Assembly (NCBI GenBank): GCA_963837955.1
Contig: CAWIPH010000002.1
Location: 1,984,001-2,048,000, forward strand
Direction: 5' to 3'
DNA length: 64,000 nucleotides
Origin: an uncultured Verrucomicrobiae bacterium
GTDB lineage: Bacteria; Verrucomicrobiota; Verrucomicrobiia; Chthoniobacterales; JAFAMB01
Part shown: one piece after another, positions 21,242 to 57,238 of the stretch
How the letters are laid out: the number at the start of each line of letters is the position of its first letter
How positions within the stretch are numbered: the stretch's first letter is position 1
Notes under the pieces: model-generated
The model's input: only the letters and a program-made list of their open reading frames with translations
Told to the model about the DNA's origin: nothing
Database searches by the model: none
Position numbers and translations under genes: made by a program

Positions 21242-22456
21242 TTATTTACCGGGTAGGCCGCCATTCTCGATCGTACCGCCATCTTTGTCTCTGCTAACCT
21301 GCATGGCGCTCAGCAAAATGCCCGATACAGATGCATCTGTCGTGAGAATGGTGTTAGCGATCTGGAGAGCAACTGTCTTCTGGTTTCCGGCAAGGGTTTT
21401 GCGGTAATCGAAATGTTCGTAACCCCAGAAAGTGTACAAGGGATTAGTGGGGCTGGATGGGCCCGTGACTCCCGCTGTGGAGTAAGCAACCCCGTTGAAG
21501 TTCAATTGAATCCCGGTGGTAACACTGGCCGCATCATTGAGGCCAAGATAACCAATGAACCAGGTTCCAAAGCCAGTCGCTTTTGGAGTGTTGAGGGTCG
21601 TAGCCAGCGTACCGCCGCTGGAAAAACCGGAGTCTCCAACCGGATAGTTAATTCCGTCCACCGTCACTGCTGGCCAGAGATTTGCACCGTTGACTTGGCC
21701 ACCGCCGTTGAGCGTCGGTTGATATTGTTGCGGATTCTTTTGGATACCGAATCCACTGCAAGCAAACGCTTGAATACGGGTGCCGGAATCTTCATCACGG
21801 CCTACCGCGAACACACTTTCGGTATCTCCCTTGTTTCCGCTAAGTGTCTTGAGTAGGAGAGTACCCTTGAGAAGGGTCTGCACCTGCGCTGACGTAATAT
21901 TGGTCACCGACCCTAGGGCAGCCGTTCCCGGGCTGGCTACAAACTTAAAGGGCACAACGCCCACTACTTCGGTGGTGAGTACCGGTGTCTGGTAGAGCGG
22001 CGGTGCCGACTTTTGGTAGCAATCGGCAAGGGCCACATCAGCGGTCAACGGTGACTCAAAGACAGGGCTGAGATCATTGGTGCCGCCGGTGCTTTGGGCG
22101 GTTGAATCAACCAGCCATCCGCCTCCACCAAAGGAGGTTCCACCGGGTCCAACGGTCAGGTTTTTAGCCAGCGTGGCAATGCCGCCGACCGAACCGGAGA
22201 ACGAGGTCTTAATGATCACAGAAACATTGCTCGTTTTGGTCGTGCCGGTGAAGATAGCTTGACTGGCTTTGCTCAAGCCGCCTGTGCCGGTATAAGCATA
22301 GACGTAACCGGTTTGGAGGTTGTCTTGGATCGCTTGATATACTGCTGCGCGATACGCGGTGGAACCGGTAACGCGTAGAAACGTCGTCTGGGCAGACGCC
22401 GTACCAATGAGGGCAAATGCGAGTAAACTCGCGAGGATGGTTTGGAACGCTTTCAC
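21242..22456 (-). CDS. secreted periplasmic-binding-protein-like protein (PstS/DING-like fold)
   Basis: Signal peptide ending ASA; RVTGST, GSVGGI, GRDEDSGTR and IGYLG resemble type II PBP phosphate-binding motifs; GTG start at 22456. Confidence 0.65.
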   Translation of the reverse strand: MKAFQTILASLLAFALIGTASAQTTFLRVTGSTAYRAAVYQAIQDNLQTGYVYAYTGTGGLSKASQAIFTGTTKTSNVSVIIKTSFSGSVGGIATLAKNLTVGPGGTSFGGGGWLVDSTAQSTGGTNDLSPVFESPLTADVALADCYQKSAPPLYQTPVLTTEVVGVVPFKFVASPGTAALGSVTNITSAQVQTLLKGTLLLKTLSGNKGDTESVFAVGRDEDSGTRIQAFACSGFGIQKNPQQYQPTLNGGGQVNGANLWPAVTVDGINYPVGDSGFSSGGTLATTLNTPKATGFGTWFIGYLGLNDAASVTTGIQLNFNGVAYSTAGVTGPSSPTNPLYTFWGYEHFDYRKTLAGNQKTVALQIANTILTTDASVSGILLSAMQVSRDKDGGTIENGGLPGK

Positions 22457-22605
22457 TATTATGGTTTGTTCTAAGGAACGATCTTTGTTCAAGGACGCTT
22501 GGTCAGTCGGTGCAGCGGAATAGCAGCGCTGAGCCGATCCCGTATGCACCTGTCTGATCCGCAACTAACATCGCTAACCCCCCGTTTCAGAACAACCGCT
22601 TTAGC

Positions 22606-33000: not shown

Positions 33001-36000
33001 TCCGAATGGTACGCTGACTTTGGCGGCGAATGACCTGATTCCCGCCGGTGCTAACCTCGCTTTCGCAAACGGTCCAGCGAATTTGCGCCCGCTTAATAGC
33101 AACGGAGTTCAAGGGTTGATTTACCCGACTGCACCGCTGCTCGGCCCCGGCTTGCTTTCCTGGTCGTTTAGTCTGGTTAGTGGAGCCGACGTTGCGGCTG
33201 CAGATTCCCGCGCGTTGCTTGCAACCACCGCGCTGAACGGTTCAGGAAATCTCCTCTTGAGCGATCCGCACATCGCAAAAAAAGGCGGTCAACCGGACTT
33301 CAGCGTGATTCGAACCGGCACTGGAAGCCTTGACTTAATGGCCGGTGGAAATCTGGAAGAACAATCGCTTTACGGGATTTATACAGCGGGAGCTCAATCT
33401 CCCGCCATCCTTAATGCCGGAATCAACTTATACAATCCTACGCGCAGTCCTGGCTTAAGCGGAGCGTATGCGAATGTGGTAGCCGCGCAGATCGCCGGAG
33501 GGTATCAGGCATTTTACCCGACCGGCGGTGGCAATCTATTGGTGTCGGTAGGAGAGGATCTATTCACTTATACATCCGCTTTGACGACTAGCCCTGCCGT
33601 AGGGAATTGGCTCTGGCGGTCAGGGGGCGCCCTGGATCCTTCAAGCGGCGCGGTCTTGCCTGCGGCTTGGTGGATTAACTTTGGAACCTATCTTGCACCC
33701 AACGGTTTTCCGGCATCACTAACCGGGTTCACCGGCTTTGGAACGCTGGGAGGCGGGAATCTGACGATTTTGGTCGCCGGTAGCGCCGGAATTCAAAATG
33801 CGGGCCCTGGTAGTCGGAGCGGGGGCTCGTTCGTTCCAACTACGAGTCAAAGCCTCGTCGCGGCTATCGGAGCGACTGGACGAATCAATGGCACCTCAAT
33901 CGTGGAAACGGGTGGAGGCGACCTCACTATCAAGATTGGCGGAGCTCTCAATCCAGTGGCTTCGAACTTTCAGGAAAACGATCTCGATGGCGGCGAGTTC
34001 ACTGAACTGCGCGGAACATTACAAATCAAGGCTGGGTCGATCGGCGGGTTAGAACTATTGTACGGGAGGTCGAGCCCGACAGATCCCGTACCTACCAGCC
34101 CTTTTGTTGCGGCTGGTCTGACCCTTGCCAATAGCGCGCCGATCTACGGGAATCCGGTCGTTGTCCTGGGCGATGCGGTCGCCGAATTTGAAACGCGCGG
34201 CGATTTAGCCTTGGGCGGTGTCGATGACGCGGGCAGGGTAGCGGAATCGGTACAATTTCAGGGCGCGTGGACCGGGCACCTCATTGTCCCTACGAATTCC
34301 TGGTTCTCTCTGTGGCGACCTCAGACCGAACTAGACCTGCTTAGCGCCGGCGGAAACCTTGCTCCGCTTAGTTTGGCTAATTTACGAGGCGACGGGAGCA
34401 ACTATGAAACCAACAACGGCTATACTTACCGAAGCTATTTCTATCCATCGATCCTGAAGTTTGTGGCCACCGATGGCAGTGTTTACCTCGGAGGGTATTA
34501 CGCGGCGTCGACCATTGAGCAGGCACCTTCGCTCTATTCGCAACTGGAGGTTTTTGCGAAGGGCTCGATTTATGCCAATGCTTTGGCAGCAGACTCAGGC
34601 AACGCCAATTCCGGCCCAGTGACCTTCGCGATTTCCAGCGGTACTCTGAATAGTGTCGCTGCACCGTTCAAGCCGGCATTCTACGGACTTGACACCCTTG
34701 GGTCTCCTGTCACCAACGTCAGTACGACGAATAGCGACGTGGTCGCCGGGTTACCGGTCGACGCGCTTTTTGTCTTCGGACTCGACACCGCGGCCAATGG
34801 TCTTTCTCATTTCGATCTACCCTCTCGTATCTACGCCGGAGGGGATATCGTTGACTCTCAATACGGTGCGGTTTTGACTCCGCGTCCGTCAGGCTCCGCT
34901 ACCGAAACTTTGTACCTGTCAGCTGGGCCTGTCCAGATTCGGGCTGGCGGCAACATCATCAACTTCGGTTCGCCGGGAAGCCAGGGCCTAATCCTGAATA
35001 ATTCGCGGCAGGATGTCTCCGTAATCTCGGCCGGCAGCGATATTCTCTACGCGAATGTCGATGTTGCTGGCCCGGGCGATCTGGAGGTCAGCGCCGGGCA
35101 CAACCTTTATCAGAACCAGGCGATCTTGGATCAACAGGCGGTCATTGAGAGCATCGGTTTGCTTGGATCAGCGAGAACTCTCAACCCGAGCGGAGGCGCG
35201 TCGGTCAGCGTGATGGCGGGTGTTGGGGCGAGCGGTCCCGATTTCAACCAGTTCGCGACGCTTTACCTGAACCCGGCCAACTTGGCAGATCCTTCCATCC
35301 CGCTGCAGAATCAGCCGGGCAAGGTAGTCCAAACTTACCAGAACGAATTGTATGCCTGGCTCAAACAGGTGTACGGGTACACCGGTACGGAGACGAATGA
35401 ACTGGCTTATTTCGATTCCTTGTCCCCTGACCAGCGGAGCGTATTTCTGCTGCAAACCTATTTTGCGGAGCTGAACCTTAGCGGCCTGGAACATAACGAC
35501 CCCACCAGCCCGTTCTTTCAGACTTATCTGCGAGGAACCCGGGCGATTACAACCCTGTTCCCCGGTTCGGCGGCCAGCTACAAAGGTAACCTTACGCTTT
35601 TCGGAGGGGCAGGCATCCGGACTGATTTCGGCGGCGCCATTGACGTACTCACACCGGACGGTCAAACCATCGTCGGGGTGGAAGGCGCGCAACCGCCGCC
35701 AACGGCGGGTATCCTGACCCAGGGGTCCGGCGACATCAATATCTACTCCGAAGGCAGCGTGTTGCTCGGGCAGAGCCGAATCCTGACGACCTTTGGTGGC
35801 AACATCCTGATCTGGTCAGGCACCGGCGATATTAATGCCGGTATCGGCGCCAAGGGAACTGTCATCTTTACGCCGCCCGGCATCGTTTATGACGGATTCG
35901 CCGACATACTCCTTTCGCCAACGGTACCGAGCTCCGGTGCCGGTATCGGCACGCTAGACCCGATCCCGCAAGTGCCTCCGGGAAACCTGAACCTGATTGC

Positions 36001-36286
36001 TCCGCAGGGAACCATCGATGCCGGCGAAGCAGGTATTCGCGTCTCCGGCAATGCCAACTTGGCCGCGCGCGTTATCATCAACGCCGCGAATATTACGGTG
36101 CAAGGTCACGCGACTGGTTTGCCCACAATTGTCACGCCGAACGTGGCTGCGATCACGGCAGCCAGCAACACCGTTGGCGCAGCGAATAATGTGGCGAACG
36201 AAATCGCGAAACAGCAGGTCGCTGCAGGCACGCAGGACATTCCGTCGATCATCACCGTCGAGGTCCTCGGGTACGGCGGAGGGTAA
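24017..36286 (+). CDS. giant filamentous haemagglutinin-like TpsA exoprotein with C-terminal DUF3739-like region (PdtA-like)
   Basis: TPS secretion domain (ILNWQTFNVG, PSQILGSIKAQGQVYLINQNGIIFGGSSQVN), beta-helix repeats, C-terminal GDINAG..IDAGEAGIR..EVLGYG. Confidence 0.92.
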   Translation: MLMDLRKNLFSVPRRARSLGFAICYLLSAICYPRSVGAGDILRGGSSNSSTGPTSAAVGGNQAAMAQLKTNAKDILARATQALQSAQAMQQTARKLALAAPNNVPNGLKPGGLQVATGKNAFWQGANQPTQSVVNGQTTVTILQTAPQAILNWQTFNVGSNTTAYFNQSAGGNFANTWVALNRILDPSRAPSQILGSIKAQGQVYLINQNGIIFGGSSQVNVSSLLVAAAIITNNQFTTSGIYSPIVTGVYQPSFTGGSGPVLIQSGAEITTNAPPGIADRGGSVILLGHSVENDGSITTTNGQTLLAAGKSFNLLQGYSITPANSSSGNLTSTTLGTEVAVSQGGIAVNTGLIQATTGDITMVGSQVTQGGVAISTSSVSQRGTIHLLTPTVDLNSGKTFPGSSVTLAPGSVTLIEPDPNSGNALNPQRTAAYAQQLAYLTNAQLNATAGLNDDVSLPDRIGISRIEITTGGTVDFASGSLTSATAGQIAVSAGKQVFAGTGAELNVSGLVDVSLPMSANNLAVSIQGFELRDNPLNRDSKTLFNSTVYVDLGQLQQVPASSAYRQNRFYTAGGALEVSGELNNVNHSINEWSTIGGSITLSAGQVVAQSGSVFNIAGGSIQYQAGYLKQSYLIGSDGHIYNVNTAPAGISYLGVFQGFIVNHPRWNVTENFANIIVDPSQIYRPGYTVGRDAGSLTINAPTSIFEGTIEAGTIDGIRQNGTRPSSVPDPFLLPQTTVPLNGSLTVGTNYPQKPQPASQPIAVSTSNVVFANGNTSIATNLNPTAQLDPALLDTNTFSAQRISSAALGGLTVNVQAPVHPSTIPGKTNQGYLTISAPLLFADGAQVSLTAANVVISGGITAPSGSVTINALSYQVSPIIVTSFTIPRPIAGITLEPGAVINTQGLFTNALLDPSDLTGEAFINGGNVTLATNQGITLAAGSLIDASSGAAILPNRKTLNGAGGNITILADQVGNVIARPSKNPNVVLTPDVAHQVSSAPLILYGTLRSFGVKTDGALSLQAYSVVIGDSISPAASSQLVLSTSFFIQGFSSYTINGLTSLTVAPGANINVTSPVYQITPAVFKMPTGTDPAIALGRPTLMPVYVGNAATATVTQRPGASLTLESGINPAIRPKTTAIDPSTIIDLQEGAFGGNIEIGLGASIVVDPNQSVTLQSGGQITVNGAIRAPAGTIAIANNRQLGGLGKTYNPGALSIWLGSNSVLDVAGNAYTTKDQFGRTYGVVQNGGSIILGSQGGVDSMFFSELSTDAFVIIRPGALLDVSGASAVLDPLAGTAPGMFDSSQLSGVPTAPVLVASNGGSITLSSYDGIFNDGTMRAFAGGRGAAGGTLSVILESPVYTLNKNQISGPQETQIPAVPATLNVPRIMTVGQGTPTDPLPIILQPGQTDPDLQVGQAYVSANAINQGGFANVSLYAGNQIAFAGSSILRAPESITLTALNLVGSKRGASTQIIAPYVKFSSPVTFVPISGGSPPFYSLELGVSNSVVVVKNFAVVADLIDFQGATDVGLPSNYPNFLLPQKSEVSFFSSGDIRFVAPVPNGTGGSPSSSVAAPDSISLSAAQIYPATGVSGSISAADTISIGRTGGPAPAVPYSVFGTLSLTAATIEQAGVLRAPLGSIVLTANRAPSVRDSGSVDLLPGSITSVSANGLTIPYGGTTDGVRYTVNGNSVTFPSLVGNANSISPSAGQFVIGITINALSVAGSKGSLIDLSGGGTLTGAGFISGRGGSVDVLSTPLINQNPTNTFSTAGSTVYAILPGGPDYAPSGASTNIPYTGGVPGIGQQITIPAGVPGLAPGVYTLLPSNYALLPGAYRVELGGAAAPLNQLPVIPVTGGSFLVTAYGGIANTGIQSSQPLRAIITSGTTVRDDSQYDEESYSSFALAQAAQFHNVAPLLPADAKTLVLNFAVPTARLSALTFNGAANFSPGPGGVSGSLLVEIPTLDSFNTPLRTNLLEITGQGAIPTRGWVSVSAAALDAFGAPNLFIGSVLAPSSGSSIVVVEATAYQVTLRAGAALTGAQVILAATQGGVTLETGSTITTLRGGSPGIDSSAGYLFTNGELAPAAVDELGYSVVSVSNGSFLLTPTAVSSKAHMFGGPVNINAGASIYSEGSIGFASGTSLNLSEQVNLGSRLIGFAVADINIGTDTALAAGILPSGLSFGQVLLDRLIAGNPAVGAPGLETLVFSASQSVNFYGSIDLAAPHLQLVFGTPAFYGGGTSKDSVTITANQVVWNGLLGFVADSSGNVIPVNTNPGPVIPGGPGTGAGTLNIVANQIVFGYSATDQPQNQIELSRLALGFSDVTFTARQEITANNKGSVSVYLAQTTGPGSYTGGNLTLVTPLLTGTPGSVLSYKTGGNLTLTTPAGVLPTTVMPDSLGAEINLTGNTITDSTSIMAASGKVTLTATGSINLTGGSRIDVSGLTVAMFDQKVPTFGGDVSLESTQGNITQTALSVINVSANGNNAGSLTITATGNSGGQVMLGGTFLGSSTGNFSSGFFDARVQSLGDFSALNAQLNQGGFFGSRSFDIKQGSVLIAAGTTIKAHTVDISVDNGSLTVSGVIDASGTAPGSIRLSAGGNLELTASAVLDAHGKVLQVDSYGQPIDAKNRATVELTVADGTNSSVATLNNGQGILLLDPGATINLSSPDGVNRGDLELNVPRMTGATSGDIRILAGGPLSIAGAQTIAVNAFWTYAPADANGTIVQSTGANVPAGAVILDQVSQDSTAFIGNAEANGVLNAGLQSKLAGLTAYRQAFHLRPGVEIVSATPNGNLIVQGDLDLSLYRYASVNPSSQLNGAVYGSGEPGVLLFRAGGNLTVNGSITDGFGQVPGPNPDDKGWVLQSGILGANLTLPADLPQAIILKPSSTYPATNVTLNYDLPVATGNVILPGVSLPVTAQPISLSKGVQISSSFIATGTITGPSGQILFRAGQTVPASPAAPYKFAIGTAFGSGSILPFPITINAVMWPAGSSLAAFSQKIRLDPNGTLTLAANDLIPAGANLAFANGPANLRPLNSNGVQGLIYPTAPLLGPGLLSWSFSLVSGADVAAADSRALLATTALNGSGNLLLSDPHIAKKGGQPDFSVIRTGTGSLDLMAGGNLEEQSLYGIYTAGAQSPAILNAGINLYNPTRSPGLSGAYANVVAAQIAGGYQAFYPTGGGNLLVSVGEDLFTYTSALTTSPAVGNWLWRSGGALDPSSGAVLPAAWWINFGTYLAPNGFPASLTGFTGFGTLGGGNLTILVAGSAGIQNAGPGSRSGGSFVPTTSQSLVAAIGATGRINGTSIVETGGGDLTIKIGGALNPVASNFQENDLDGGEFTELRGTLQIKAGSIGGLELLYGRSSPTDPVPTSPFVAAGLTLANSAPIYGNPVVVLGDAVAEFETRGDLALGGVDDAGRVAESVQFQGAWTGHLIVPTNSWFSLWRPQTELDLLSAGGNLAPLSLANLRGDGSNYETNNGYTYRSYFYPSILKFVATDGSVYLGGYYAASTIEQAPSLYSQLEVFAKGSIYANALAADSGNANSGPVTFAISSGTLNSVAAPFKPAFYGLDTLGSPVTNVSTTNSDVVAGLPVDALFVFGLDTAANGLSHFDLPSRIYAGGDIVDSQYGAVLTPRPSGSATETLYLSAGPVQIRAGGNIINFGSPGSQGLILNNSRQDVSVISAGSDILYANVDVAGPGDLEVSAGHNLYQNQAILDQQAVIESIGLLGSARTLNPSGGASVSVMAGVGASGPDFNQFATLYLNPANLADPSIPLQNQPGKVVQTYQNELYAWLKQVYGYTGTETNELAYFDSLSPDQRSVFLLQTYFAELNLSGLEHNDPTSPFFQTYLRGTRAITTLFPGSAASYKGNLTLFGGAGIRTDFGGAIDVLTPDGQTIVGVEGAQPPPTAGILTQGSGDINIYSEGSVLLGQSRILTTFGGNILIWSGTGDINAGIGAKGTVIFTPPGIVYDGFADILLSPTVPSSGAGIGTLDPIPQVPPGNLNLIAPQGTIDAGEAGIRVSGNANLAARVIINAANITVQGHATGLPTIVTPNVAAITAASNTVGAANNVANEIAKQQVAAGTQDIPSIITVEVLGYGGG

Positions 36287-36940: not shown

Positions 36941-38728
36941 ATGCACACCGCCCTACAGGACCACTTAGATCATTCGCCGGTACGATGCGGTGTGGCGAAG
37001 GAGTGGAGTGTTGGAGTTGCGGAGTTCTGGAGTGATGGAGTGAGGGTGCGGCTGAGTTCGGGTCGGAGTCACCGACTTGGGCGCTTCATATTACTGTCGG
37101 TCGCTGTTTCGTTCTGCTGGCCGACCTTTTTGGGTGGGCAAACGGCGGGCCCTTCGCCTGCACCTCAGGAAGGCAAACCGTCGGCGACTCCTTCGCAGGT
37201 CAAGGCGCAAGCTAGACCGCAGACCCAAACACAGCCGGAGCGCCAGCTATACATCCAGGAGTACCGAGTCCAGGGCGCGCATCAATTAAGCCCAGTCCAG
37301 GTTGAGGAAGCGGTCTACAGCTATCTTGGACCGGGCCGGACCACCGAAGACGTGGAACATGCGTGCGCAGCGTTGGAGAAAGCCTACCAGGACAAAGGTT
37401 ATCAGACAGTGTCGGTGCAGGTTCCGCCCCAGCAGGTGAGGAACGGTGTCGTCGTCCTGCAGGTAATCGAGGGCAAGGTAGGACGGCTGCGTGTTCGCGG
37501 GTCACGCTATTTCTCTCTCGATCAGATCAAGAGGCAGGCGCCTTCGATGAGAGAAGGAACGGTGCCAAATTTCAATGATGTAACCCGGGATATCGTGGCG
37601 TTGAATCAGCTACCGGATCGACGGGTCACGCCAACTCTGCACGCCGGTGTTGAACCTGGAACGGTCGATATCGATCTGACGGTAAAAGACACGCTACCAC
37701 TGCACGGCAGCATGGAATTGAACAACCGTAACAGTCCGAACACCTCATCCCTTCGGCTCAATGGTTCGGTCAGTTACAATAACCTCTGGCAGCTGGGTCA
37801 CTCGCTCGGGTTCAGCTTTCAGGTCGCGCCAGAGCGTGCGGCCGATGCGGAGGTTTTTTCAGCGTACTATCTCGCCCGATTTTCCGGGGCCGAATGGCTC
37901 AGTCTGCTGATTCAGGGGACCAAGCAGGACAGTAATGTATCGACGCTCGGTAGCATTGCGGTCGCGGGACGCGGCGAAATCCTGGGCGCGCGAGCCATTA
38001 TCACGTTGCCGCCCGGCAAGGATTTCTATGAGTCGCTCAGTCTCGGAATTGATTGGAAGCATTTTGATCAACGGGTAGCGCTCGGGACCGGCACGATCGC
38101 CACACCCATCACATACTACCCGGTGAGCGCCGTCTACACTGGCACCTGGGTTTCCCCGGGCTCGGAGACTGATCTGAACGCAGGTGTCACCTTAGGTCTG
38201 CGCGGTGTAGGCAGTAAGGATACGGAATTTGATAACAGCCGATTCAAGGCGAGCGGCAATTTCTTCTATTTCCGAGGCGATCTGGCTCATACGCAGGATT
38301 TGCCCTGTGGCTGGCAGGTCTATGGGAAAGTACAGGGCCAGATTGCCGATCAACCGCTGGTGAATAGCGAGCAAATCGGCGGCGGTGGTTTGGGAACCGT
38401 ACGTGGGTATTACGAAGCGGAGGAGTTGGGCGACAGCGGCATTTTTGGTACGGTGGAGCTGCGCAGTCCTTCGCTTCTCGGTTGGATGGGAAAGAAGGGC
38501 GACGAATGGCGGTTCTACGGCTTCCTGGATGCCGGACGGTTGACTCTGAGAAATCCGCTTCCTGAACAAATCTCCCGCTTCGACCTGATGAGCTACGGGG
38601 GAGGCACCCGGGTCCAAGTCTATGACCATTTCAATGGATCGCTCGACATCGGGGTACCGCTTATCAGCGGTCAGAACACTCCGCTGCACGAGGTCCGCTT
38701 CACTTTCCGTCTGTGGGCTGATTTCTGA
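36941..38728 (+). CDS. TpsB (ShlB/FhaC/HecB) outer-membrane transporter; exact start uncertain
   Basis: POTRA (YQDKGY, VIEGKVG), VRGYY motif, terminal Phe. Confidence 0.92.
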   Translation: MHTALQDHLDHSPVRCGVAKEWSVGVAEFWSDGVRVRLSSGRSHRLGRFILLSVAVSFCWPTFLGGQTAGPSPAPQEGKPSATPSQVKAQARPQTQTQPERQLYIQEYRVQGAHQLSPVQVEEAVYSYLGPGRTTEDVEHACAALEKAYQDKGYQTVSVQVPPQQVRNGVVVLQVIEGKVGRLRVRGSRYFSLDQIKRQAPSMREGTVPNFNDVTRDIVALNQLPDRRVTPTLHAGVEPGTVDIDLTVKDTLPLHGSMELNNRNSPNTSSLRLNGSVSYNNLWQLGHSLGFSFQVAPERAADAEVFSAYYLARFSGAEWLSLLIQGTKQDSNVSTLGSIAVAGRGEILGARAIITLPPGKDFYESLSLGIDWKHFDQRVALGTGTIATPITYYPVSAVYTGTWVSPGSETDLNAGVTLGLRGVGSKDTEFDNSRFKASGNFFYFRGDLAHTQDLPCGWQVYGKVQGQIADQPLVNSEQIGGGGLGTVRGYYEAEELGDSGIFGTVELRSPSLLGWMGKKGDEWRFYGFLDAGRLTLRNPLPEQISRFDLMSYGGGTRVQVYDHFNGSLDIGVPLISGQNTPLHEVRFTFRLWADF

Positions 38729-38751: not shown

Positions 38752-40614
38752 ATGGCAACGGCTAGTAAACCATCAAAGATACATCTCCTAACTCTTGGGC
38801 ACTTCGCGAGGCTGCGATCCCTCCCGAGCATCCTGGGCTGTTTGATCATCCTGATCTTTCCGGTCGCCGCTCACGCGTGGTGGAATGGCGATTGGTCGAT
38901 CCGAAGGAAAATCACTGTAGACATGACGGCAACAGGGGCCGCCATCACCGAGCCGATCGGCACCGTTCCGCTGCTACTTCGGCTGCACGACGGCAACTTC
39001 CAATTCAGCGCAGCGAAAGAAGACGGGAGCGATATCCGTCTCGTTGCCGAAGACGATAAGACTCTCCTCACCTATCACGTGGAAAAGTATGATTCGCTTT
39101 TGAACGAAGCGTTCGTCTGGGTGAAGATCCCCGATCTGAAGCCTGGCGCGAAGACCAGCTTCTGGCTCTACTACGGCAACAGTAACGCGTCGGCCACGCG
39201 AGTCGATAATGCGAAGGGCACATATGATCCCGAAACGGTGCTGGTCTACCATTTCGGAGCACAACCTCCGGCGGATTCCACAAGTTACGAGAACAACGCG
39301 AAGACCGCGGGCACTGCCGTAGAAGGTTCACTCATTGGAAGCGGCGTACGCCTGGATGGAAAGAACGCTATCGCGCTGCCTGACTCTCCCTCGCTGGCCT
39401 GGACGCAGGGTGGAGCGCTGACCTGGTCGGCTTGGATCAATCCCTCGGCGTTGCAGCCGAACGCCGCGATCTATAGCCGTCGAGAAGGTGCGAATAGCTT
39501 CGTGATTGGCCTCGATAACGGCATTCCCTATGTGGAAGTGACCGGGTCGAACGGTACTGCTCGTACCGGACCGGGAACCGCGATTCCCACGGGCAGCTGG
39601 CGGCATCTTGCAGTGGTCGCCGCAGGCTCGGTGATCACGCTCTATGTCGATGGCGCATCCTACGGGACGGTGAGTGCGTCAATCCCGGCGACGAGCAGTT
39701 CCGCGTTGATCGGAGGAGACACGGCCGGATCCGGTTTCACCGGTGAAATGGACGAGCTGGAAATTTCGAAGGTCGCGCGCGATCCGGGCTTCATCAAACT
39801 GCTGGCCAACGACCAGGGCGGTGAAAAAGCGACCAAACTGCTGACGTTTGGCGAAGACGAGCAGACGGGAAGCTGGTTGACCGGTTATTTCGCGGTCATC
39901 CTGAAGTCAGTAACTCCCGACGGCTGGGTCGTGATTGGCATCCTCATGGTGATGGCTGTGTTCAGTTGGTTCGTGATGTTTAATCGGTTGGCCTATCTGA
40001 ACCGAGTCAGTAAAGGGAACGCAAAGTTCCTGGAGGAGTGGAACCATATTTCGAGAGATCTCACTGTTCTGGACGACGGAAACGCTGAAAAGGTGAGAAC
40101 CATGGGTGGCCGGATTGGGATAGGGAGCAGCGCCATCCGCAACGCTGCCATTTACCGGATCTATCACATCGGAGCGGAGGAAATCCGGCACCGACTCGGG
40201 AACGGGGGGCCCAAGGTGCTGTCCGGTCCATCGATCCAAGCTATCCGCGCTAGCCTCGATGGCGGACTCGTACGCGAGAGCCAAAAACTCAATAGCCTGA
40301 TGGTGTTCCTCACGCTGGCCATCTCGGGTGGTCCGTTCCTCGGTCTTCTGGGTACGGTGGTCGGCGTGATGATCACTTTTGCCGCGATTGCTGCTGCGGG
40401 CGACGTGAACGTCAATTCCATTGCGCCCGGTATTGCCGCCGCGTTGGTGGCAACGGTGGCCGGTCTCGCTGTCGCCATCCCCGCCCTGTTTGGCTACAAT
40501 TACTTACTCACTCGAATCAAGAATCTGACCAGCGACATGAACGTCTTCATCGACGAATTCGTGACGAAGATGGCCGAGTTCTACAGCAGCCGGCCGGACG
40601 AGGTGGTCCGCTGA
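38752..40614 (+). CDS. exbB: DUF2341 + LamG-like + MotA/TolQ/ExbB fusion
   Basis: WWNGDW..R, DGSDIR, LYYGN; concanavalin-like WRHLAVV/LYVDG; GPFLGLLGTVVG, PGIAAALVATVAGL. Confidence 0.9.
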   Translation: MATASKPSKIHLLTLGHFARLRSLPSILGCLIILIFPVAAHAWWNGDWSIRRKITVDMTATGAAITEPIGTVPLLLRLHDGNFQFSAAKEDGSDIRLVAEDDKTLLTYHVEKYDSLLNEAFVWVKIPDLKPGAKTSFWLYYGNSNASATRVDNAKGTYDPETVLVYHFGAQPPADSTSYENNAKTAGTAVEGSLIGSGVRLDGKNAIALPDSPSLAWTQGGALTWSAWINPSALQPNAAIYSRREGANSFVIGLDNGIPYVEVTGSNGTARTGPGTAIPTGSWRHLAVVAAGSVITLYVDGASYGTVSASIPATSSSALIGGDTAGSGFTGEMDELEISKVARDPGFIKLLANDQGGEKATKLLTFGEDEQTGSWLTGYFAVILKSVTPDGWVVIGILMVMAVFSWFVMFNRLAYLNRVSKGNAKFLEEWNHISRDLTVLDDGNAEKVRTMGGRIGIGSSAIRNAAIYRIYHIGAEEIRHRLGNGGPKVLSGPSIQAIRASLDGGLVRESQKLNSLMVFLTLAISGGPFLGLLGTVVGVMITFAAIAAAGDVNVNSIAPGIAAALVATVAGLAVAIPALFGYNYLLTRIKNLTSDMNVFIDEFVTKMAEFYSSRPDEVVR

Positions 40615-40643: not shown

Positions 40644-41048
40644 ATGCAAGTCCAATCCGAAGAGAAGCCTTACGACGACATCAACATCACGCCGATGCTC
40701 GACCTGGCTTATGTGCTCCTCGTTATCTTCATCATCATGACGACTGCTTCGGTCCAAGGACTGAAGGTCAATCTGCCCAAGGCGGGCGCCGCGCCCAGCT
40801 TGGCTAAGCCGCAGACCAAGGCGATCACGGTCACCAACGAAGGCAAGATTTTTCTCGATACGGTTCCCGTCACGCTAGCGGAATTGGAACAGCGTCTGAC
40901 CCAACAGAAAGCGCAGACACCTGAGTTTCCGGTGGTGGTACGAGGCGATAGCCTAACTCAATATCAGAAGGTTATGGACGTACTGGATTTGCTCGGGCGT
41001 TTAGGCATAACCCAGGTCGGACTGGCGACCAAACCGCTCGTGAAATGA
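40644..41048 (+). CDS. exbD: biopolymer transporter ExbD
   Basis: INITPMLDLAYVLLVIFII, VNLPKA, VRGD, VMDVL. Confidence 0.92.
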   Translation: MQVQSEEKPYDDINITPMLDLAYVLLVIFIIMTTASVQGLKVNLPKAGAAPSLAKPQTKAITVTNEGKIFLDTVPVTLAELEQRLTQQKAQTPEFPVVVRGDSLTQYQKVMDVLDLLGRLGITQVGLATKPLVK

Positions 41049-41148: not shown

Positions 41149-41865
41149 ATGGATCTGACTGACCAAGACGAAATCAGTTTCTTTCGCCGGCATCGTTTCT
41201 TGGTCGCTGGCGGCGTCCTGCTCGCCCTCATCGCAATCGCCGCTTTGGCCATGAAGATGTTCACTGGTCAGAGCTCGACGCCAGTCAAGGTGCCGCAAAT
41301 GACTTTCGTGAAGCTGTTGCCTCCGGCGCCGACGCCGACGCCACCTCCGCCGACGCAGTCAACGCCGCGCCCGCAGGAGATGATCGAGCAAAAACAGATG
41401 GTCGAGCCGGAGAACAAGCCAATCAAACCGGACGAGAAACCCAAGGAAGAGTCGAAGGATAATAAGAAGCCGCCGGGTCCGTTAGGCCTTAATGCGAAAG
41501 GGGAAGGAAATTCGGACTCCTTCGGGTTGGTGGGTAGGCCTGGCGGCAATGGCTTGTTGAACGGAGGCGGTGGCGGTGGTGGCACGCGCTGGGGTTGGTA
41601 CGCCAATCAGGTTCAGGCGAAGATCGAAGACGCTCTGCGGCAAAATCGCCAGACCCGCGACGCTGCGCTCCGGGTTCAGGTCCGCATATGGGCCGATAGC
41701 ACCGGCCGCGTTACCCGCGCTCAACTGGTGGGCTCGACGGGCAACGCGGCAATCGATAGCGCCATCACGAACGAGGTTTTGTCAGGACTCCAGTTCCAGG
41801 AGCCTCCGCCCTCCGACATGCCAATGCCGATTGTCCTGCGGCTCACCGAGCGGCGACCCAACTAA
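41149..41865 (+). CDS. TonB/TolA-like energy transducer
   Basis: N-terminal TM, Pro/Lys/Glu-rich linker, C-terminal GRV..AQLVGSTG..AID domain. Confidence 0.85.
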   Translation: MDLTDQDEISFFRRHRFLVAGGVLLALIAIAALAMKMFTGQSSTPVKVPQMTFVKLLPPAPTPTPPPPTQSTPRPQEMIEQKQMVEPENKPIKPDEKPKEESKDNKKPPGPLGLNAKGEGNSDSFGLVGRPGGNGLLNGGGGGGGTRWGWYANQVQAKIEDALRQNRQTRDAALRVQVRIWADSTGRVTRAQLVGSTGNAAIDSAITNEVLSGLQFQEPPPSDMPMPIVLRLTERRPN

Positions 41866-41900: not shown

Positions 41901-43898
41901 ATGGTCCACAAAGAACACATTCTTCGCCGCCAGACGCTGTTGTTCGCATCGATATGGTGCGTATCCGCAGCGCTGCCGGCATTTGCAGCTGATCCAGTTG
42001 CGACGCCGAGCCCTCCTAATTTCCCGGTCTCGGACACTGCTCCTATTCCCTCGCCAACCCCGCTTGTTGCTGCATCTCCAGCTGCTTCCGCAACTCCAGC
42101 GCCTTCGGCAACGCCATCGCAGAATGTAACGATCAATCTGATCAATCGTCTGGTTCAGCGCGGTGTTCTTACCAAAGAAGATGCAGATGAACTCATCAAG
42201 CAGGCCGAAGCCGATGCGGTCCGCGCCCGGGAAGAGGTTACGAAAGCGAATGAAACACCGGCTCCCGGCTCGGCCCTGATGACTCCGGGAGGTCTTTTGC
42301 CTTCTCCTCAGTTTATGCCGACCCAGAATCCGGTCGCCAATGCCGAGAGCGGCTCCGTTCCGCCGGCCAGTCAGGAGCCTCCGCCAGCTCTCGAACCTGG
42401 TCCCGACGACACGGTGCGGGTTACTTACATACCCGAGGTCGTGAAGGCTCAGTTGCGGGATGAAATCAAGCAGGAGGTTATGCAGGAAGCTCGCGACGAG
42501 CGCTGGGCGGCTCCGCGCACTTTTCCGGAATGGGTGTCGCGCATTAAGCTTTTCGGGGATGTCCGTTTCCGTTACGAAGGTATTTTCTTTCCCTCCGGTA
42601 ACGATAACACCGGCGCTTTTCCCAATTTCAACGCGATCAATACCGGGCCCCCTTTTGATGTGAGTCAGAACAACACCAGTTTCCCGCCAGAGCTCAATGT
42701 CGATAAGGAGCGCAATCGGTTCCGGATGCGAGTTCGAGCCGGCCTGCTTGCGGATTTGGGTGATGGGTTTACGATCGGAATCCGTGGAGCCACCGGGGAA
42801 AACGACTCTCCGGTGACAGAGAATCAGACGGTCGGAGCTGCGAACAGCGGGCAGGGAGGCAATTTCAGCAAATACGCGATCTGGCTCGATCGTGCTTTTC
42901 TGAAGTACGAGATTGGATGTCTGCCCGTTAGCGATTTGGCTATTACGTTTGGCCGTTTCGACAATCCGTTCTTTGCCACTACCATGATCTGGGCAAACGA
43001 TCTTGGCTTTGACGGCGTGGTGTTGCAGGGGAAATACCAATTTTTCGGATCTGTGACTCCGTTCCTGACACTGGGCGCCTTTCCTGTCTTTAACACGGAG
43101 CTCAACTTCGCCTCCACCAATGCCGCCAAGTTCAACAGCGAAGATAAATATCTTTTCGCGATTCAAGGTGGGACCGAGTGGGTGATTAACCGCGATTTCA
43201 GCACGAAACTGGGCCTCGCGTACTACTACTTCAAGAATATCGAGGGCCGGCTCTCGAAGCCGTTTACACCGCTTTCCTCGTCGGACCAGGGAAACACGGA
43301 TGACAGCCGGCCGGCGTTTGCCCAGAACGGGAACACCTACATGGCCTTACGGAATATCATCGGGACTGCCTCCAATAACTTTAATCAGACCAACCAATTC
43401 CAGTACTTTGGACTCGCCACGCCGTTCCATGAATTGGCGTTTACCGGACGACTCGATTACAACCATTTTGAGCCGCTCCAGGTATCGCTGGTAGGGGAAT
43501 TCGTCACGAACGTCGCTTTCGATCGAAGCCAAATAGCGGGCAAGGCGGTGAACAATCGGAGTACAGCGACTCTCCCGGCAGTCGGTTCGTTTGCGGGTGG
43601 TAATACGGCCTGGATCATCAATCTTACCGCTGGGAGCGCCACATTTCAGAAGCGATGGGATTGGAACGTCGGCATCGGATACCGCTATGTGGAATCTGAC
43701 GCAGTGGTCGATGGCTTTAACGACTCCGATTTCGGCACTCCACTATCCGGCACCAATCTGAAGGGCTACACCATCTTCGGAAATCTTGCTCTAACTCCCA
43801 ATGTTTATCTCGGAATCCGTTGGATGAGCGCCAACGAGATTGCGGGTCCTCCCTTCAAATCCGACGTACTGCAAGTCGACATCAACGGAAAGTTCTAA
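41901..43898 (+). CDS. putative outer-membrane porin
   Basis: LVQRGVLT N-terminal motif, GDVRFRYE, RFRMRVR, DSDFG..GTN.KG, C-terminal DINGKF. Confidence 0.85.
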   Translation: MVHKEHILRRQTLLFASIWCVSAALPAFAADPVATPSPPNFPVSDTAPIPSPTPLVAASPAASATPAPSATPSQNVTINLINRLVQRGVLTKEDADELIKQAEADAVRAREEVTKANETPAPGSALMTPGGLLPSPQFMPTQNPVANAESGSVPPASQEPPPALEPGPDDTVRVTYIPEVVKAQLRDEIKQEVMQEARDERWAAPRTFPEWVSRIKLFGDVRFRYEGIFFPSGNDNTGAFPNFNAINTGPPFDVSQNNTSFPPELNVDKERNRFRMRVRAGLLADLGDGFTIGIRGATGENDSPVTENQTVGAANSGQGGNFSKYAIWLDRAFLKYEIGCLPVSDLAITFGRFDNPFFATTMIWANDLGFDGVVLQGKYQFFGSVTPFLTLGAFPVFNTELNFASTNAAKFNSEDKYLFAIQGGTEWVINRDFSTKLGLAYYYFKNIEGRLSKPFTPLSSSDQGNTDDSRPAFAQNGNTYMALRNIIGTASNNFNQTNQFQYFGLATPFHELAFTGRLDYNHFEPLQVSLVGEFVTNVAFDRSQIAGKAVNNRSTATLPAVGSFAGGNTAWIINLTAGSATFQKRWDWNVGIGYRYVESDAVVDGFNDSDFGTPLSGTNLKGYTIFGNLALTPNVYLGIRWMSANEIAGPPFKSDVLQVDINGKF

Positions 43899-43900
43899 TC

Positions 43901-44548
43901 ATGTCCCGAAACATCTCACCTTTCATCGCTATGAGCTTGCTCTGGATCTGGATGGCCGGAGCGCTCAAAGCAGCCGATCAAACGACTTCACCGGAGGAGC
44001 GTCTGCGCGGAATGTTGCGCACCACGATGCTCCAACTGCGTGAGGCCCAGAATCAGAACGCTGTCCTGCAGACAGCCAAAGCCGAAGCCGAAAAAGGGAA
44101 ACAAGAGGTCAGCGATCGTCTCGAAGCTTTGACTAAGCAAGCCGCGGCCGACAAAGATGCCGCAACTAAAACTGTTTCTGATCTCAACGCCAAACTCGCT
44201 GATCAGAATACGCAGCTGGCCCAGTATAAGGATGCTCTGGAAAAATGGCAGCAAGGCTACAAACAGGCGGCCGAGCTGGCGACCACGAAGGAGGCACAGC
44301 GGGCTAAGCTCGCCTCTCAGGTCATTGTCCTGCAGCGGCGGGTCGAAGACGATGAACGCAAGAATGCCGAACTTTACAGCCTGGGGAAAGAAATCCTCAA
44401 CCGTTACGAAAAGTTCGGTCTCGGGACGGCTCTGACTGCCCGCGAACCGTTCGTTGGTGTAACGCGCGTGAAACTCGAGAACTTAGTCCAGGATTATTCA
44501 GATAAACTTAGCGACCAACAAATCAAACCAACTGCTCCCGCTCATTGA
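43901..44548 (+). CDS. secreted coiled-coil protein
   Basis: Signal peptide, heptad-rich body, REPFVG..RVKLENLVQDY tail. Confidence 0.8.
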   Translation: MSRNISPFIAMSLLWIWMAGALKAADQTTSPEERLRGMLRTTMLQLREAQNQNAVLQTAKAEAEKGKQEVSDRLEALTKQAAADKDAATKTVSDLNAKLADQNTQLAQYKDALEKWQQGYKQAAELATTKEAQRAKLASQVIVLQRRVEDDERKNAELYSLGKEILNRYEKFGLGTALTAREPFVGVTRVKLENLVQDYSDKLSDQQIKPTAPAH

Positions 44549-44590: not shown

Positions 44591-45589
44591 ATGAATCTCT
44601 CCTTGTCGTCTGTATCGTCTTCGAGTTCGCGTGTCTTTCATCGGTTACCGGCCTTGAGCGTCGCACTATCTTGGTTGGGGAAGGTGCACGTGGGCCTCTT
44701 GGCGTCGAGCTTGCTTGTTTACAGCGCGACCGCGGCTGATCCGAGCCCGTCCGCTACTGACTCCGCGGTGATCGCTCGGATCGGCGACACCGAAGTCAAA
44801 ATCGACGATATCCGCGCCTCGATCGAATCCCTCGATGCTCGCGACCAAGCGGCGTTGGCCCGCGATCCGAGTTTGCTGAACCAGGTCGTACGAACATTCC
44901 TCGTGCGCCGGATCGTGTTGAAGGAAGCCCTGGCTAAAAAATGGGACCAGGAGTCGGCGGTAGCCGCGCAGATCCAACGGGCGCGCGACAACACCATCGT
45001 TGAAACTTATTTGCAATCCGTTTCCAAGCCGGTCGACACGTATCCGAGCGACGCCGAGTTACAGACCGCCTATGAGACCAAGAAAGCTCAGTTACTTGTT
45101 CCCCGGCAGTTTCGGCTGGCCCAAATCTTTATCGCAATGCCGAAGACCGCTGATAAAGCCACGACAGATAAAGCCCAAACCAAACTAGAGGCCGTTAAAA
45201 AGAGTCTACACCAAACCGGTGCCGATTTCGCGGTGATCGCCAAGGCAAACAGTGAAGAAGCGGAGAGTGCGGCGCGCGGAGGTGAAATTGGTTGGCTTAC
45301 GGAAACCCAGGTGCAACCCGAGGTTCGACCCCAAGTGACCTCTCTGAGCAAGAACGCGGCGTCCGAACCAATCCGACTGGAAGACGGGTGGCACATTCTC
45401 AAGGTTCTTGATATCAAGGAGGCATACACTCCGACGCTCGACGAGATTCGCAGCCAGCTAGTACAGCAGCTTCGGAACGAAAAAACCCAAAGCAACAGTC
45501 AGGCATATCTGGCCAAGCTGTTGCAGCAAAGCCCCGTCGCGATCAACGAGCTAGCTCTCTCGAAAGTTTTGAACAAGACGGAGAAGTGA
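44591..45589 (+). CDS. PpiC-type peptidyl-prolyl isomerase (SurA/PrsA-like)
   Basis: LAQIFI, ADFAVIAKANS, GGEIGW, SEPI..GWHILK. Confidence 0.88.
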   Translation: MNLSLSSVSSSSSRVFHRLPALSVALSWLGKVHVGLLASSLLVYSATAADPSPSATDSAVIARIGDTEVKIDDIRASIESLDARDQAALARDPSLLNQVVRTFLVRRIVLKEALAKKWDQESAVAAQIQRARDNTIVETYLQSVSKPVDTYPSDAELQTAYETKKAQLLVPRQFRLAQIFIAMPKTADKATTDKAQTKLEAVKKSLHQTGADFAVIAKANSEEAESAARGGEIGWLTETQVQPEVRPQVTSLSKNAASEPIRLEDGWHILKVLDIKEAYTPTLDEIRSQLVQQLRNEKTQSNSQAYLAKLLQQSPVAINELALSKVLNKTEK

Positions 45590-45678: not shown

Positions 45679-45739
45679 GAGAGCCGGACGCCGGGGTATG
45701 CCGTTGCGTTTGTCGATCGTCACAACAAAACCGCCCGGC
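45679..45739 (+). repeat. left copy of a 61-bp inverted repeat flanking the mini-TpsA gene
   Basis: Reverse complement of 46773-46833 with few mismatches. Confidence 0.8.
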
Positions 45740-46012
45740 GTATATGGTCGGTGACGCGATGACCGATGACCAATCACCGTGCGCTACCACGGGGGGACCG
45801 AGTCCCTGGGGCTTCGCCCCTAGGCTATCCTAAAACGTGCCTTCAGCCCTAACTAACTAAGCTAATCACCGATCACCAATCATTCGCCATCCCAGCCCGC
45901 TGAGCGACGCGCCACACGAATGTAACAATCAAAATGCAGACGACTCGGTGTGTTGATGACAATGATAAGGGCAACGATTTCAACAAACTTTCGGTAACCG
46001 ACCTACACGTTT

Positions 46013-46561
46013 ATGTGCACCCTGAAATCTTCCGATTTGTTTGGCGCGCATCGGAGCGCCTTTTCGACCGCTGCCGCGATCCTGGTCATGATTGGAGCTA
46101 TTTCCGTCGCTGCCGGGGGTGATGCCGGGAACATACTGCGCTCAAACCCTGTGGTGAATCCGAATCAGCAGGCGAATGCGATAAATCGTCTCGCGCAGAC
46201 AAATCAGGCGGTGCAAGCAATGCAGAATACGACTAATGCCCTTCGCAGCCTGAATAATCAGCAGACCAGCCCCATACGCGGCGGTGGCGTGATCGTCAAT
46301 GCGAGCCAGACCCCGAACGCGGTACCGAGCCAGATCCTGGCTTCGTTTCACGTCAATGGCAAAACGTATGTGATCGATCGCAACGGCATCATTTTCGGCG
46401 GTCCGCGGCAGATAAATACGCACGAGTTGACTGGTGCGGCCATGGGAGCAACGAGCGATTGGATGACGGAAGTCGCGAAAAAGCAACGCGCTGAGACTGC
46501 GCCGAAAAAGGTTCCGTCGCTCGTGAGAGCCGAGGTGCTGGGGTACGGCGCTAAGCCCTGA
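46013..46561 (+). CDS. miniature TpsA paralog (N-terminal fragments joined to the C-terminal tail)
   Basis: AGNILR, LAQTNQAVQAMQ, PSQIL..YVIDRNGIIFGG..IN and VPSLVRAEVLGYG match both ends of the 4089-aa protein. Confidence 0.8.
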   Translation: MCTLKSSDLFGAHRSAFSTAAAILVMIGAISVAAGGDAGNILRSNPVVNPNQQANAINRLAQTNQAVQAMQNTTNALRSLNNQQTSPIRGGGVIVNASQTPNAVPSQILASFHVNGKTYVIDRNGIIFGGPRQINTHELTGAAMGATSDWMTEVAKKQRAETAPKKVPSLVRAEVLGYGAKP

Positions 46562-46600
46562 CCGGGCGCTGGTGATTGGTGATCGGTAAGCAGTAAGCAG

Positions 46601-46757: not shown

Positions 46758-46772
46758 TGGTGTATCCGACAA

Positions 46773-46833
46773 GCCGGGCGGTTTTGTTGTGACCATTGAC
46801 AACGCGACGGCATACCCCTGGCATCCGGCTCTC
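46773..46833 (-). repeat. right copy of the 61-bp inverted repeat
   Basis: See 45679-45739. Confidence 0.8.
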
Positions 46834-47434: not shown

Positions 47435-48844
47435 ATGAAACAACACGAGAAGACAAAAACCAAGTCCGAAGCGCCAAAACCGTTACACGAGCCAGAGCCC
47501 GATGCGGCTGGCATTGATGTAGGAGCCAATGAAATCTGGGTTGCTGTAGCGCCTGATCGTAGCGAGAAGCCAATCAGAAGATTTGGTGCATTTACTCAGG
47601 AGCTCAAGGCCATTGTCCAGTGGCTGCGAGATTGCGGGATTCGTACCGTAGCAATGGAATCGACCGGTGTTTACTGGATTCCACTCTATCAGCTTCTGGC
47701 CGATGCCGGACTGAAGGTCTGTTTAGTCAACGCCCGGCATGTCAAAAATGTACCGGGTCGCAAAAGTGACGTGGGCGACTGTCAATGGTTGCAGTACCTC
47801 CACAGCGTGGGTCTATTGCGGGCTTCTTATCGGCCCGATCAAGCCATCTGTGCCGCGCGGAGCATTTACCGCTATCGGCAAAATCTGCTCACCCAGGCTG
47901 CTCAGCATCTCCAGCATATGCAGGCGGCCTTGGATCAAATGAATATTAAGCTCCACCACGTCATCGACGATCTGACGGGCATGACGGGGCTGGCGATCAT
48001 CGAGGCCATTTTAGAGGGTGAGCGAGACCCACACCAATTGGCCAAGCATCGCGATCACCGAATCAAAGCTTCCCAACAAACCATCGTCAAAGCCTTGGAG
48101 GGCGATTGGCGCAGCGAACACCTCTTTGTTTTAAAAGTGGCCTGGGAAAATTGGAAGCAGGCTCAACACCAAATCCAAAAATGTGATCAACAGCTGCTGG
48201 AATACACCCGCCAATTGGAAGCCTGTACTACTCTGGCCAAGCCGATCAAGACCGTGCGCTTGAGCACGCAAGCAGCCGGCTCTCATCCCGTTGCCCGGCC
48301 CAGCAAACCGCGCAGGAAAACCAGCAAGAATGAACCCCCGGGGCCTTGGCGAGAAGAACTCTCTCGCTTCTTTGGCGTTGATCTGACCGCTATCCCAAGC
48401 ATCAGCGTTCTCACCGGTATTACCCTGATGACCGAGCTAGGTAATGACCTGGGTGCTTTCAAGAGCGCACACCACTTTAGTTCCTGGCTCTGTCTGTGTC
48501 CGGATAACGAGACCAGCGCTAGCAAAGTGCTTCGCCGAGCGACCCGTCGCAGCCAAAATCGGGTTCGACAGGCATTGCGCATGGCTGCCTCTTCCTTGCA
48601 CCATGATAAGAGCTACCTGGGAGACAAATACCGACGCTTGCGCGCCAAACTAGGTGCTCCCAAGGCTATCACCGCCATGGCCCACCAATTAGCCAGAATC
48701 CTCTGGCACCTCATCGTTCATCGAGTCCCCTTTGATCTGACCATCTTTGCTGCTTACGAAAAGGCCAATCAGACCCGACGTCTCAAACGACTCTCCTCTG
48801 CTGCCCGCCAGATGGGCTACCAACTGACTCCTATCGCTACCTGA
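47435..48844 (+). CDS. IS110 family transposase/recombinase
   Basis: DEDD RuvC-like domain (GIDVG, MESTG, KSDVGD) and C-terminal Tnp domain (SWLCLCP..ETSAS, AITAMAHQLARI); intact. Confidence 0.95.
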   Translation: MKQHEKTKTKSEAPKPLHEPEPDAAGIDVGANEIWVAVAPDRSEKPIRRFGAFTQELKAIVQWLRDCGIRTVAMESTGVYWIPLYQLLADAGLKVCLVNARHVKNVPGRKSDVGDCQWLQYLHSVGLLRASYRPDQAICAARSIYRYRQNLLTQAAQHLQHMQAALDQMNIKLHHVIDDLTGMTGLAIIEAILEGERDPHQLAKHRDHRIKASQQTIVKALEGDWRSEHLFVLKVAWENWKQAQHQIQKCDQQLLEYTRQLEACTTLAKPIKTVRLSTQAAGSHPVARPSKPRRKTSKNEPPGPWREELSRFFGVDLTAIPSISVLTGITLMTELGNDLGAFKSAHHFSSWLCLCPDNETSASKVLRRATRRSQNRVRQALRMAASSLHHDKSYLGDKYRRLRAKLGAPKAITAMAHQLARILWHLIVHRVPFDLTIFAAYEKANQTRRLKRLSSAARQMGYQLTPIAT

Positions 48845-57228: not shown

Positions 57229-57238
57229 CGAATCGAGA

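Follow-up and report, generated by a model that had tools for sequence, protein, structure and literature searches.

The 64,000-nucleotide stretch of DNA analyzed here (the window) encodes, at opposite ends of one run of genes, a giant TpsA of 4089 residues and a protein of 182 residues that resembles the two ends of the giant joined together. This raises the question of what a TpsA-like protein without a passenger is, that is, whether it is the debris of a deletion or a protein with a function of its own, and what that function could be. As described below, the small ORF is very probably a functional, selection-maintained, passenger-less paralogue of a DUF3739-type giant TpsA, and its main value is that it flags conserved end motifs of a widespread, poorly understood TPS–TonB system.

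The small ORF matches both ends of the giant TpsA

The small ORF (P0002; positions 46013..46561, + strand, ATG start, taken from the ORF listing) is referred to here as the mini. Its comparison with the giant ORF (24017..36286, + strand) by BLASTP gave three colinear matches whose order is kept in both proteins. Giant residues 8–96 match mini residues 8–80 (E 0.002), the TPS core of the giant (residues 179–238; 24551..24730, + strand; also found by tblastn) matches mini residues 93–152 with 26 of 60 residues identical (43%, E 4e-10), and the C-terminal segment of the giant (residues 4053–4087; 36173..36277, + strand; found by BLASTP, tblastn, and the motif count described below), which includes PSIITVEVLGYG, matches mini residues 144–179 with 15 of 36 residues identical (E 8e-5). 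The TPS-core and C-terminal matches both cover residues 144–152 of the mini, which places the join between the N- and C-terminal parts at approximately residues 136–150. A profile of 39 mini homologues matches the giant twice, at residues 173–238 (i-E 2e-15) and 4047–4088 (i-E 0.0021); hence, the similarity between the two proteins goes beyond chance.

The mini is 3907 residues shorter than the giant. Giant residues from about 239 to 4052 have no counterpart in it, and a short linker takes the place of residues from about 97 to 178. The original prediction, which described the ORF as a head-to-tail miniature of the 4089-residue TpsA lacking about 3900 residues of passenger, is thus borne out, and the strings that it quoted (AGNILR/AGDILR, a Q/A-rich helix, PSQIL...NGIIFGG...Q(I/V)N, and E(V/I)AK(K/Q)Q...EVLGYG) are all found in both translations. 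It had also held that the mini is not a fresh deletion, and this agrees with the DNA: similarity between the two genes is faint (72% over 83 nt at the C-motif and 95% over 21 nt at NGIIFGG), which rules out a fresh deletion of the local giant as the source of the mini. Neither tblastn nor a profile scan of every ORF of 50 residues or more revealed another mini upstream of the giant in the window.

The giant TpsA and the gene array

The ORF at 24017..36286 is a true TpsA. Pfam assigns residues 127–389 to the TPS domain and residues 3927–4037 to DUF3739. An AF2 model of residues 1–405 (64 sequences) shows a TPS β-helix with a pLDDT of 83.9 and a pTM of 0.80, and among PDB entries this model best matches the secretion domains of HxuA (E 2.8e-10), EtpA, HMW1, HpmA, and FHA.

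The C-terminal pattern (I/V/L)(I/F)xV(E/D)V(L/I)G(Y/F)G, here called the C-motif, occurs within the last 150 residues of 54 of the 65 fetched giants (proteins of at least 2500 residues), and is followed by 1 to 67 residues. Some of the 11 giants without it may be truncated records or proteins of other architectures, like P0082. This 3930-residue protein has about ten tandem TPS-core-like segments (10 matched stretches), whereas an ordinary TpsA has one N-terminal TPS domain. A GDILR-type motif (the N-motif) lies within the first 120 residues of 28 of the 65 giants. In proteobacterial giants, 45–67 residues extend beyond the C-motif (about 50 or more at loci L066 and L073). Several of them (P0088, P0096, P0118, P0119, and those at L066 1-1119 and L073 2-5350) have a second strand, VQV(L/I)GxG, about 30 residues past VEVLGYG and followed by a short charged helix; the giant of the window stops right after the first (VEVLGYG) strand.

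All genes between 24017 and 46561 are on the + strand, with the giant first and the mini last. Between them, Pfam identifies a TpsB transporter (POTRA_2 and ShlB; 36941..38728), which is near to and shared by the giant and the mini, a protein combining DUF2341, LamG, and MotA/ExbB (38752..40614), ExbD (40644..41048), a TonB-like protein with a TonB_2 C-terminal domain at residues 150–230 (41149..41865), an outer-membrane protein of the Porin_5 family (41901..43898; E 5.6e-203), and a PpiC-type, SurA-like peptidyl-prolyl isomerase (PPIase; 44591..45589). A coiled-coil protein to which the domain search assigned no Pfam family (43820..44548) lies between the porin and PPIase genes, and a repeat-filled gap of 423 bp separates the PPIase gene from the mini. 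The window thus carries the full ExbB/ExbD/TonB/Porin_5/PpiC array; at the two other loci with a mini (L001 and L002, see below), the available DNA ends inside the giant. The sole signal-like hydrophobic stretch of the TpsB ORF lies at residues 47–66, so that its true start is probably further downstream. By eye, the mature N terminus of this protein is rich in Pro and Gln and shows no obvious H1 plug helix.

Modules and predicted fold of the mini

Five modules are retained in the mini: a signal peptide, the N-motif G-(D/N)-I-L-(R/K), a long helix, a TPS fragment, and a C-terminal strand. The predicted Sec signal peptide (residues 1–35; 46013..46117, + strand; core AAAILVMIGAISVAAG) was recognized by eye from a hydrophobic core at residues 20–35 followed by small residues, and AF2 places a helix at residues 12–32. 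The N-motif AGNILR (residues 38–43; 46124..46141, + strand) forms the predicted mature N terminus and occupies the same residues, 38–43, as AGDILR in the giant. It is followed by a Q/A-rich helix (residues 50–82; 46160..46258, + strand), which appears in the AF2 models of both the mini and giant residues 1–405 and lies within the N-terminal BLASTP match (E 0.002); its counterpart in the giant is the helix at residues 60–99.

The TPS-domain fragment (residues 93–135; 46289..46417, + strand), identified by BLASTP, TIGR01901, and alignment with solved domains, contains the secretion motifs PSQIL and NGIIFGG. Next comes the junction segment THELTGAAMGATSDW (residues 136–150; 46418..46462, + strand), where the BLAST matches overlap and where conservation in the family is highest. 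A basic linker then precedes the C-terminal strand PSLVRAEVLGYG (residues 168–179; 46514..46549, + strand), which is supported by BLASTP, by alignment, and by the motif count in giants. Residues 170–179 fit the C-terminal pattern of the DUF3739-type giants, and the consensus of this strand among minis is PS(I/L)xxV(E/D)VLGYG.

About 60 of the approximately 260 residues of a TPS domain are kept. In the model of the giant, the equivalent residues 179–238 make up seven short strands and one helix of a β-helix that runs from about residue 113 to beyond residue 400. The fragment aligns with residues 66–131 of HMW1, 70–103 of EtpA, and 74–109 of HxuA, around the LINPNGI region. Within the 39 aligned minis, (N)P(N)AVPSQIL and DRNGIIFGG show little or no variation, and we take these PSQIL and NGIIFGG stretches to be the NPNL-type and NPNGI-type motifs, respectively. 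The TPS domain is not complete: the mini has no PF05860 match at E ≤ 1, and its TIGR01901 score of 22.3 bits is under the cutoff of 29.1. Pfam also finds no DUF3739 in the mini, whereas the giant has one, and the mini, with 182 residues in total, has no long β-helical passenger.

AF2 modeling of the mini alone (39 sequences) gave a pLDDT of 55 and a pTM of 0.22, with a hairpin at residues 108–122, helices at residues 50–82 and 136–162 in addition to the signal-peptide helix, and an unstructured C terminus. A search of the ESM Atlas returned just TPS-fragment clusters, at 0.92–0.93, and nothing new. With about 60 of 260 TPS residues and no confident fold, the mini would not be able to form or nucleate a β-helix alone.

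The mini family is conserved and under selection

A word-indexed search (E ≤ 1e-3, 260 candidates) yielded 73 proteins of 113–206 residues that share the architecture of the mini. Their identity to the protein of the window is 48–99% in the best local alignment, and frames are intact in all 73 clusters (at 36–99% identity). A Chthoniobacterales MAG is named as the source of one of them, and many bear the JGI name "filamentous hemagglutinin family protein." The same plan is kept in the divergent minis P0075, P0078–P0080, and P0083. In an exhaustive profile search of 1.84 billion cluster representatives, which gave 1291 matches at E ≤ 1e-3, the top consisted of seven full-length mini clusters (164–181 residues) and six fragments, and below these came giants of 3500–4900 residues and their fragments.

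Conservation was expressed as the fraction of rows with the commonest residue in the alignment of 39 minis. It is lowest in the signal peptide (0.34) and highest in the junction (0.95), and amounts to 0.86 in the TPS core, 0.82 in the C-motif, 0.75 in the linker before the TPS core, 0.72 in the basic linker, 0.71 in the N-motif, and 0.62 in the helix. The C-motif is present in 73 full-length minis as well as in most giants, so the C-terminal EVLGYG strand that the original prediction had singled out is indeed a conserved motif. The junction is near-invariant and has no close counterpart in giants, and these sequence comparisons suggest that it is a surface acquired after the deletion.

The mini is carried by three independent genome assemblies. 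With DNA from these three minis, dN/dS could be computed for two pairs, giving 0.25–0.32 for the window versus L001 and 0.22 for the window versus L002; these values are rough, with dS near saturation. An intact frame, selection, and homologues of the same length set the mini apart from a pseudogene or deletion remnant, and the outcome that the original prediction named as its refutation, a decaying remnant, is contradicted by 73 homologues of similar length and dN/dS values of 0.22–0.32.

Origin of the minis

Phylogenetic analysis of the TPS core covered 72 distinct minis and 110 distinct giants over 64 columns in a quick search. Proteins without NG(I/V)(I/V/M)FG among residues 1–600 were excluded, as were rows whose cores were identical. 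Minis and giants are separated by a single branch (SH-aLRT 98), and none of 500 label shuffles came as low. These sequence data are compatible with a single origin of the minis. Within the same three genomes, the minis are 50, 50, and 67% identical to one another, compared with 56, 56, and 68% for the giants, so that the divergence of the minis runs parallel to that of the neighboring giants.

Two further origins were considered and rejected. Gene conversion between the mini and its own giant is ruled out, the cognate giant being no closer to the mini than foreign giants are. A continuum of deletion products is also ruled out: among 58 matches of intermediate length (211–2499 residues), one (P0122, 1767 residues) has both the TPS motif and the C-motif, and the minis therefore form a discrete size class. 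P0122 may be a giant that was shortened on a separate occasion. The most economical account is that a TpsA paralogue lost about 3900 internal residues in frame, once and long ago, and was thereafter inherited together with the giant. The best explanation of the data places this inheritance in one verrucomicrobial (Chthoniobacterales-like) lineage.

Distribution across genomes

A scan of one genome per species (185,579 species) led to 80 loci being kept. Two of these, L001 and L002, both from Verrucomicrobiota MAGs, encode a mini. The other 78 have a giant, recognized by its TPS-core match, and no mini in the DNA fetched, which means that the giant system works without the mini. The mini family is narrow, and its direct biological reach is limited.

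At L001 and L002, the giant follows 174–193 bp after the mini and has a signal peptide and a TPS domain of its own, whereas in the window the mini lies 9.7 kb downstream of the giant, beyond the PPIase gene. The partnership of mini and giant thus holds in all three genomes while the position of the mini varies. Both of these loci also encode, upstream of the mini and in divergent orientation, a protein of 444–461 residues without a Pfam family, which by eye shares conserved N- and C-terminal sequence with the product of 21242..22564 in the window. These proteins belong to a secreted-looking family of 409–461 residues with no Pfam assignment and the motif TGSTAYRAA, encoded divergently and upstream of the giant or mini in the three genomes (window 21242-22564; L001 2683-4068 and 1066-2295; L002 7688-9022; all on the − strand).

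Comparison with known systems

The mini resembles type Vb TpsA proteins in its Sec signal, its PSQIL and NGI(I/V)FG-type motifs, and the presence of a TpsB in the array. It differs from HxuA, EtpA, HMW1, HpmA, and FHA in having about 60 of about 260 TPS residues and no passenger. With neither a whole TPS domain nor a passenger, it falls short of a TpsA in two defining respects, and DUF3739 is absent as well. We regard it as a derived TpsA paralogue without a passenger and, in architecture, as a new variant inside a known kind.

The region from 24017 to 45589 of the window is like the P. aeruginosa cluster pdtA-pdtB-exbB2-exbD2-tonB4-PA0696-PA0697-PA0699 in the kinds of genes and their order, as judged by comparing gene lists rather than sequences. 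In the sections consulted of the papers on this PdtA/PdtB cluster, PA0696 is a porin and PA0699 a PPIase, PA0691 is described as a transposase-like or Phd-like gene, and the TonB system is termed uncharacterized (PMC7035377, PMC2729926). Those same sections describe no mini-TpsA in the cluster (PMC7035377, PMC2729926). Literal term matching in the portions of the literature covered likewise found no equivalent of a natural mini-TpsA or of a TonB-coupled TPS system.

Engineered TpsA truncations offer the closest comparison. According to the sections of PMC10449530 consulted, TpsB-dependent secretion requires no more than a signal peptide and a whole TPS domain, so that in these constructs the N-terminal end alone, with a whole TPS domain and no native C terminus, engages TpsB. 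The mini differs from them in being natural, in having a quarter of the TPS domain, and in having this fused to the C-terminal motif. A section heading of the same paper refers to two BcpA proteins in competition to be secreted by one BcpB transporter, and the paper also describes the H1 plug helix of TpsB transporters (PMC10449530, in the sections consulted). The helix predicted at residues 136–162 of the mini (about 27 residues, low confidence) differs from H1 in that it is on a separate protein rather than part of TpsB itself; that it might occupy the barrel as H1 does is speculation based on the model.

A DUF3739 giant TpsA beside a private ExbB-ExbD-TonB set, a porin, and a PPIase is found in many phyla, including PdtA of P. 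aeruginosa. The mini amounts to a natural deletion experiment on such a giant, in which 95% of the protein was discarded and just four short modules were conserved. Judging from sequence, the retained ends are probably the parts that touch the export machinery. The candidate contact surfaces are the mature N-terminal GDILR, the pre-TPS helix, the two TPS motifs, and the C-terminal VEVLGYG strand, and these end motifs provide small handles on the role of TonB in such clusters and on how the C terminus of the giant is held.

Possible functions of the mini

The NPNL and NPNGI motifs matter for recognition, and partial TPS motifs may suffice for POTRA binding. We tentatively favor, as a possibility somewhat short of probable, that the mini is a periplasmic competitor or gatekeeper at the docking sites of the giant and that it tunes the secretion of the giant or its retention at the surface. 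Once exported by Sec, the mini would stay at the periplasmic face of the outer membrane, where its PSQIL and NGIIFGG motifs would bind the POTRA domains of TpsB and its PS(L/I)xxV(E/D)VLGYG strand would bind whatever holds the C terminus of the giant. As it is without about three quarters of the TPS β-helix and the whole passenger, it would not be pulled out by folding and so would serve as a competitor or gatekeeper. The data show that the modules are homologous and conserved and that the family exists and is under selection, and from there we infer the location, the binding partners, and the regulatory effect. Also in favor of the reading are the presence of TpsB in the same co-directional array and the fact that the end modules conserved family-wide are exactly those that were kept. 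The occurrence of the mini at two of the 80 kept loci and its unfixed position weigh against such a role.

It is unlikely, although worth considering, that the mini is instead a substrate of TpsB, i.e., a minimal exported or surface-anchored protein, for instance a stub filling or marking the transporter. The TPS motifs would then start translocation and the C-motif would keep the mini attached. The signal peptide, both TPS motifs, and the C-motif of the giant are all in the mini, and truncated TpsA proteins consisting of a signal peptide and a TPS domain are secreted elsewhere (PMC10449530, in the sections consulted). However, the secreted constructs hold the whole TPS domain, whereas the mini holds just the equivalent of giant residues 179–238 and is predicted to lack a confident fold of its own.

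The ExbB, ExbD, and TonB-like genes between TpsB and the mini bring in another reading, namely that the C-motif or the N-terminal GDILR is a TonB-box-like strand and that the mini is an adaptor or plug coupling TpsB or the porin to the ExbB-ExbD-TonB motor. The C-motif is strand-like, with alternating hydrophobics, and is kept in 54 of 65 giants; the likeness of the C-motif and the N-motif to a TonB box is one that we presume by eye. A cluster of the same kind with an uncharacterized TonB system exists in P. aeruginosa (PMC7035377, in the sections consulted). The reading is nonetheless quite unlikely: 45–67 residues trail the motif in proteobacterial giants, and a free end is thus not needed. 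More doubtful still is a trans-acting version, in which the mini would use its TPS fragment and junction helix to thread or cap TpsB and would offer its C-terminal strand to the ExbB-ExbD-TonB motor. If this were true, the proton-motive force would control whether PdtA-type giants are secreted, retained, or released, whereas type Vb secretion is described as needing no external energy source, and the end motifs common to giant and mini would be the coupling handles.

We give little credence to the idea that the mini titrates or primes the PpiC/SurA-like chaperone or the coiled-coil protein rather than TpsB. The PPIase gene is the upstream neighbor of the mini in the window, and the model of the mini consists largely of helix and disorder, which is what a chaperone client would look like, but the minis of L001 and L002 adjoin the giant and not a PPIase gene. 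A primer or cap, as proposed originally, would conflict with the predicted inability of the mini to form or nucleate a β-helix by itself, and a core part of the machine is at odds with the giant being widespread while the mini occurs at two of 80 fetched loci. That the mini is a neutral, functionless leftover of a deleted TpsA paralogue deserves scarcely any credence, because its setting among dispersed repeats, inside 61-nt inverted repeats and beside an IS110 transposase gene, and its lack in most giant-bearing genomes are outweighed by 73 clusters with intact frames, dN/dS below 0.33, a near-invariant junction, and occurrence in three assemblies, so that conservation at the sequence level largely refutes this reading.

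Repeats, mobile elements, and flanking genes

The mini lies between the arms of a 61-nt inverted repeat (left arm, 45679..45739; right arm, 46773..46833), whose two copies are the only ones in the window. An IS110-type transposase gene is found downstream at 47435..48844. On both sides of this gene are copies of a palindrome about 90 nt long (46601-47004, 47127-47146, and 48895-48977), consistent with insertion of the IS110 element into a repeat element just 3′ of the mini. Scans for promoters and terminators around the minis of the window, L001, and L002 gave counts at the level of shuffled sequences.

An intergenic hairpin repeat also recurs in the window. Its best four copies (5687-5734, 14357-14403, 59870-59914, and 61518-61562) score 35.8–36.8 bits, just under the Rfam gathering score of 37 for Acido-Lenti-1 RNA, and weaker copies lie at 5526-5558, 14507-14553, 45805-45850, 46911-46966, and 48920-48975; one such Acido-Lenti-1-like copy is 160 bp upstream of the mini ORF. 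Short tandem repeats of the GGTGATTGGTGA or CAGTAA type number 15 in the window, versus 0.18 expected. Sites with these repeats are at 45587-45671, 46559-46601, 14257-14297, 16098-16166, 20049-20074, and 23151-23162, and they include positions directly 3′ of the stop codons of the PPIase gene and the mini ORF.

Further downstream, the region at 49214-51118, 51364-53538, 53535-55664 (− strand), and 55852-57270 (− strand) includes two paralogous TIR + TPR membrane proteins, which adjoin a TPR-S + class III nucleotide cyclase protein and an HtrA-like protease. This neighborhood (49214-57270) may be of a signaling or defense type.
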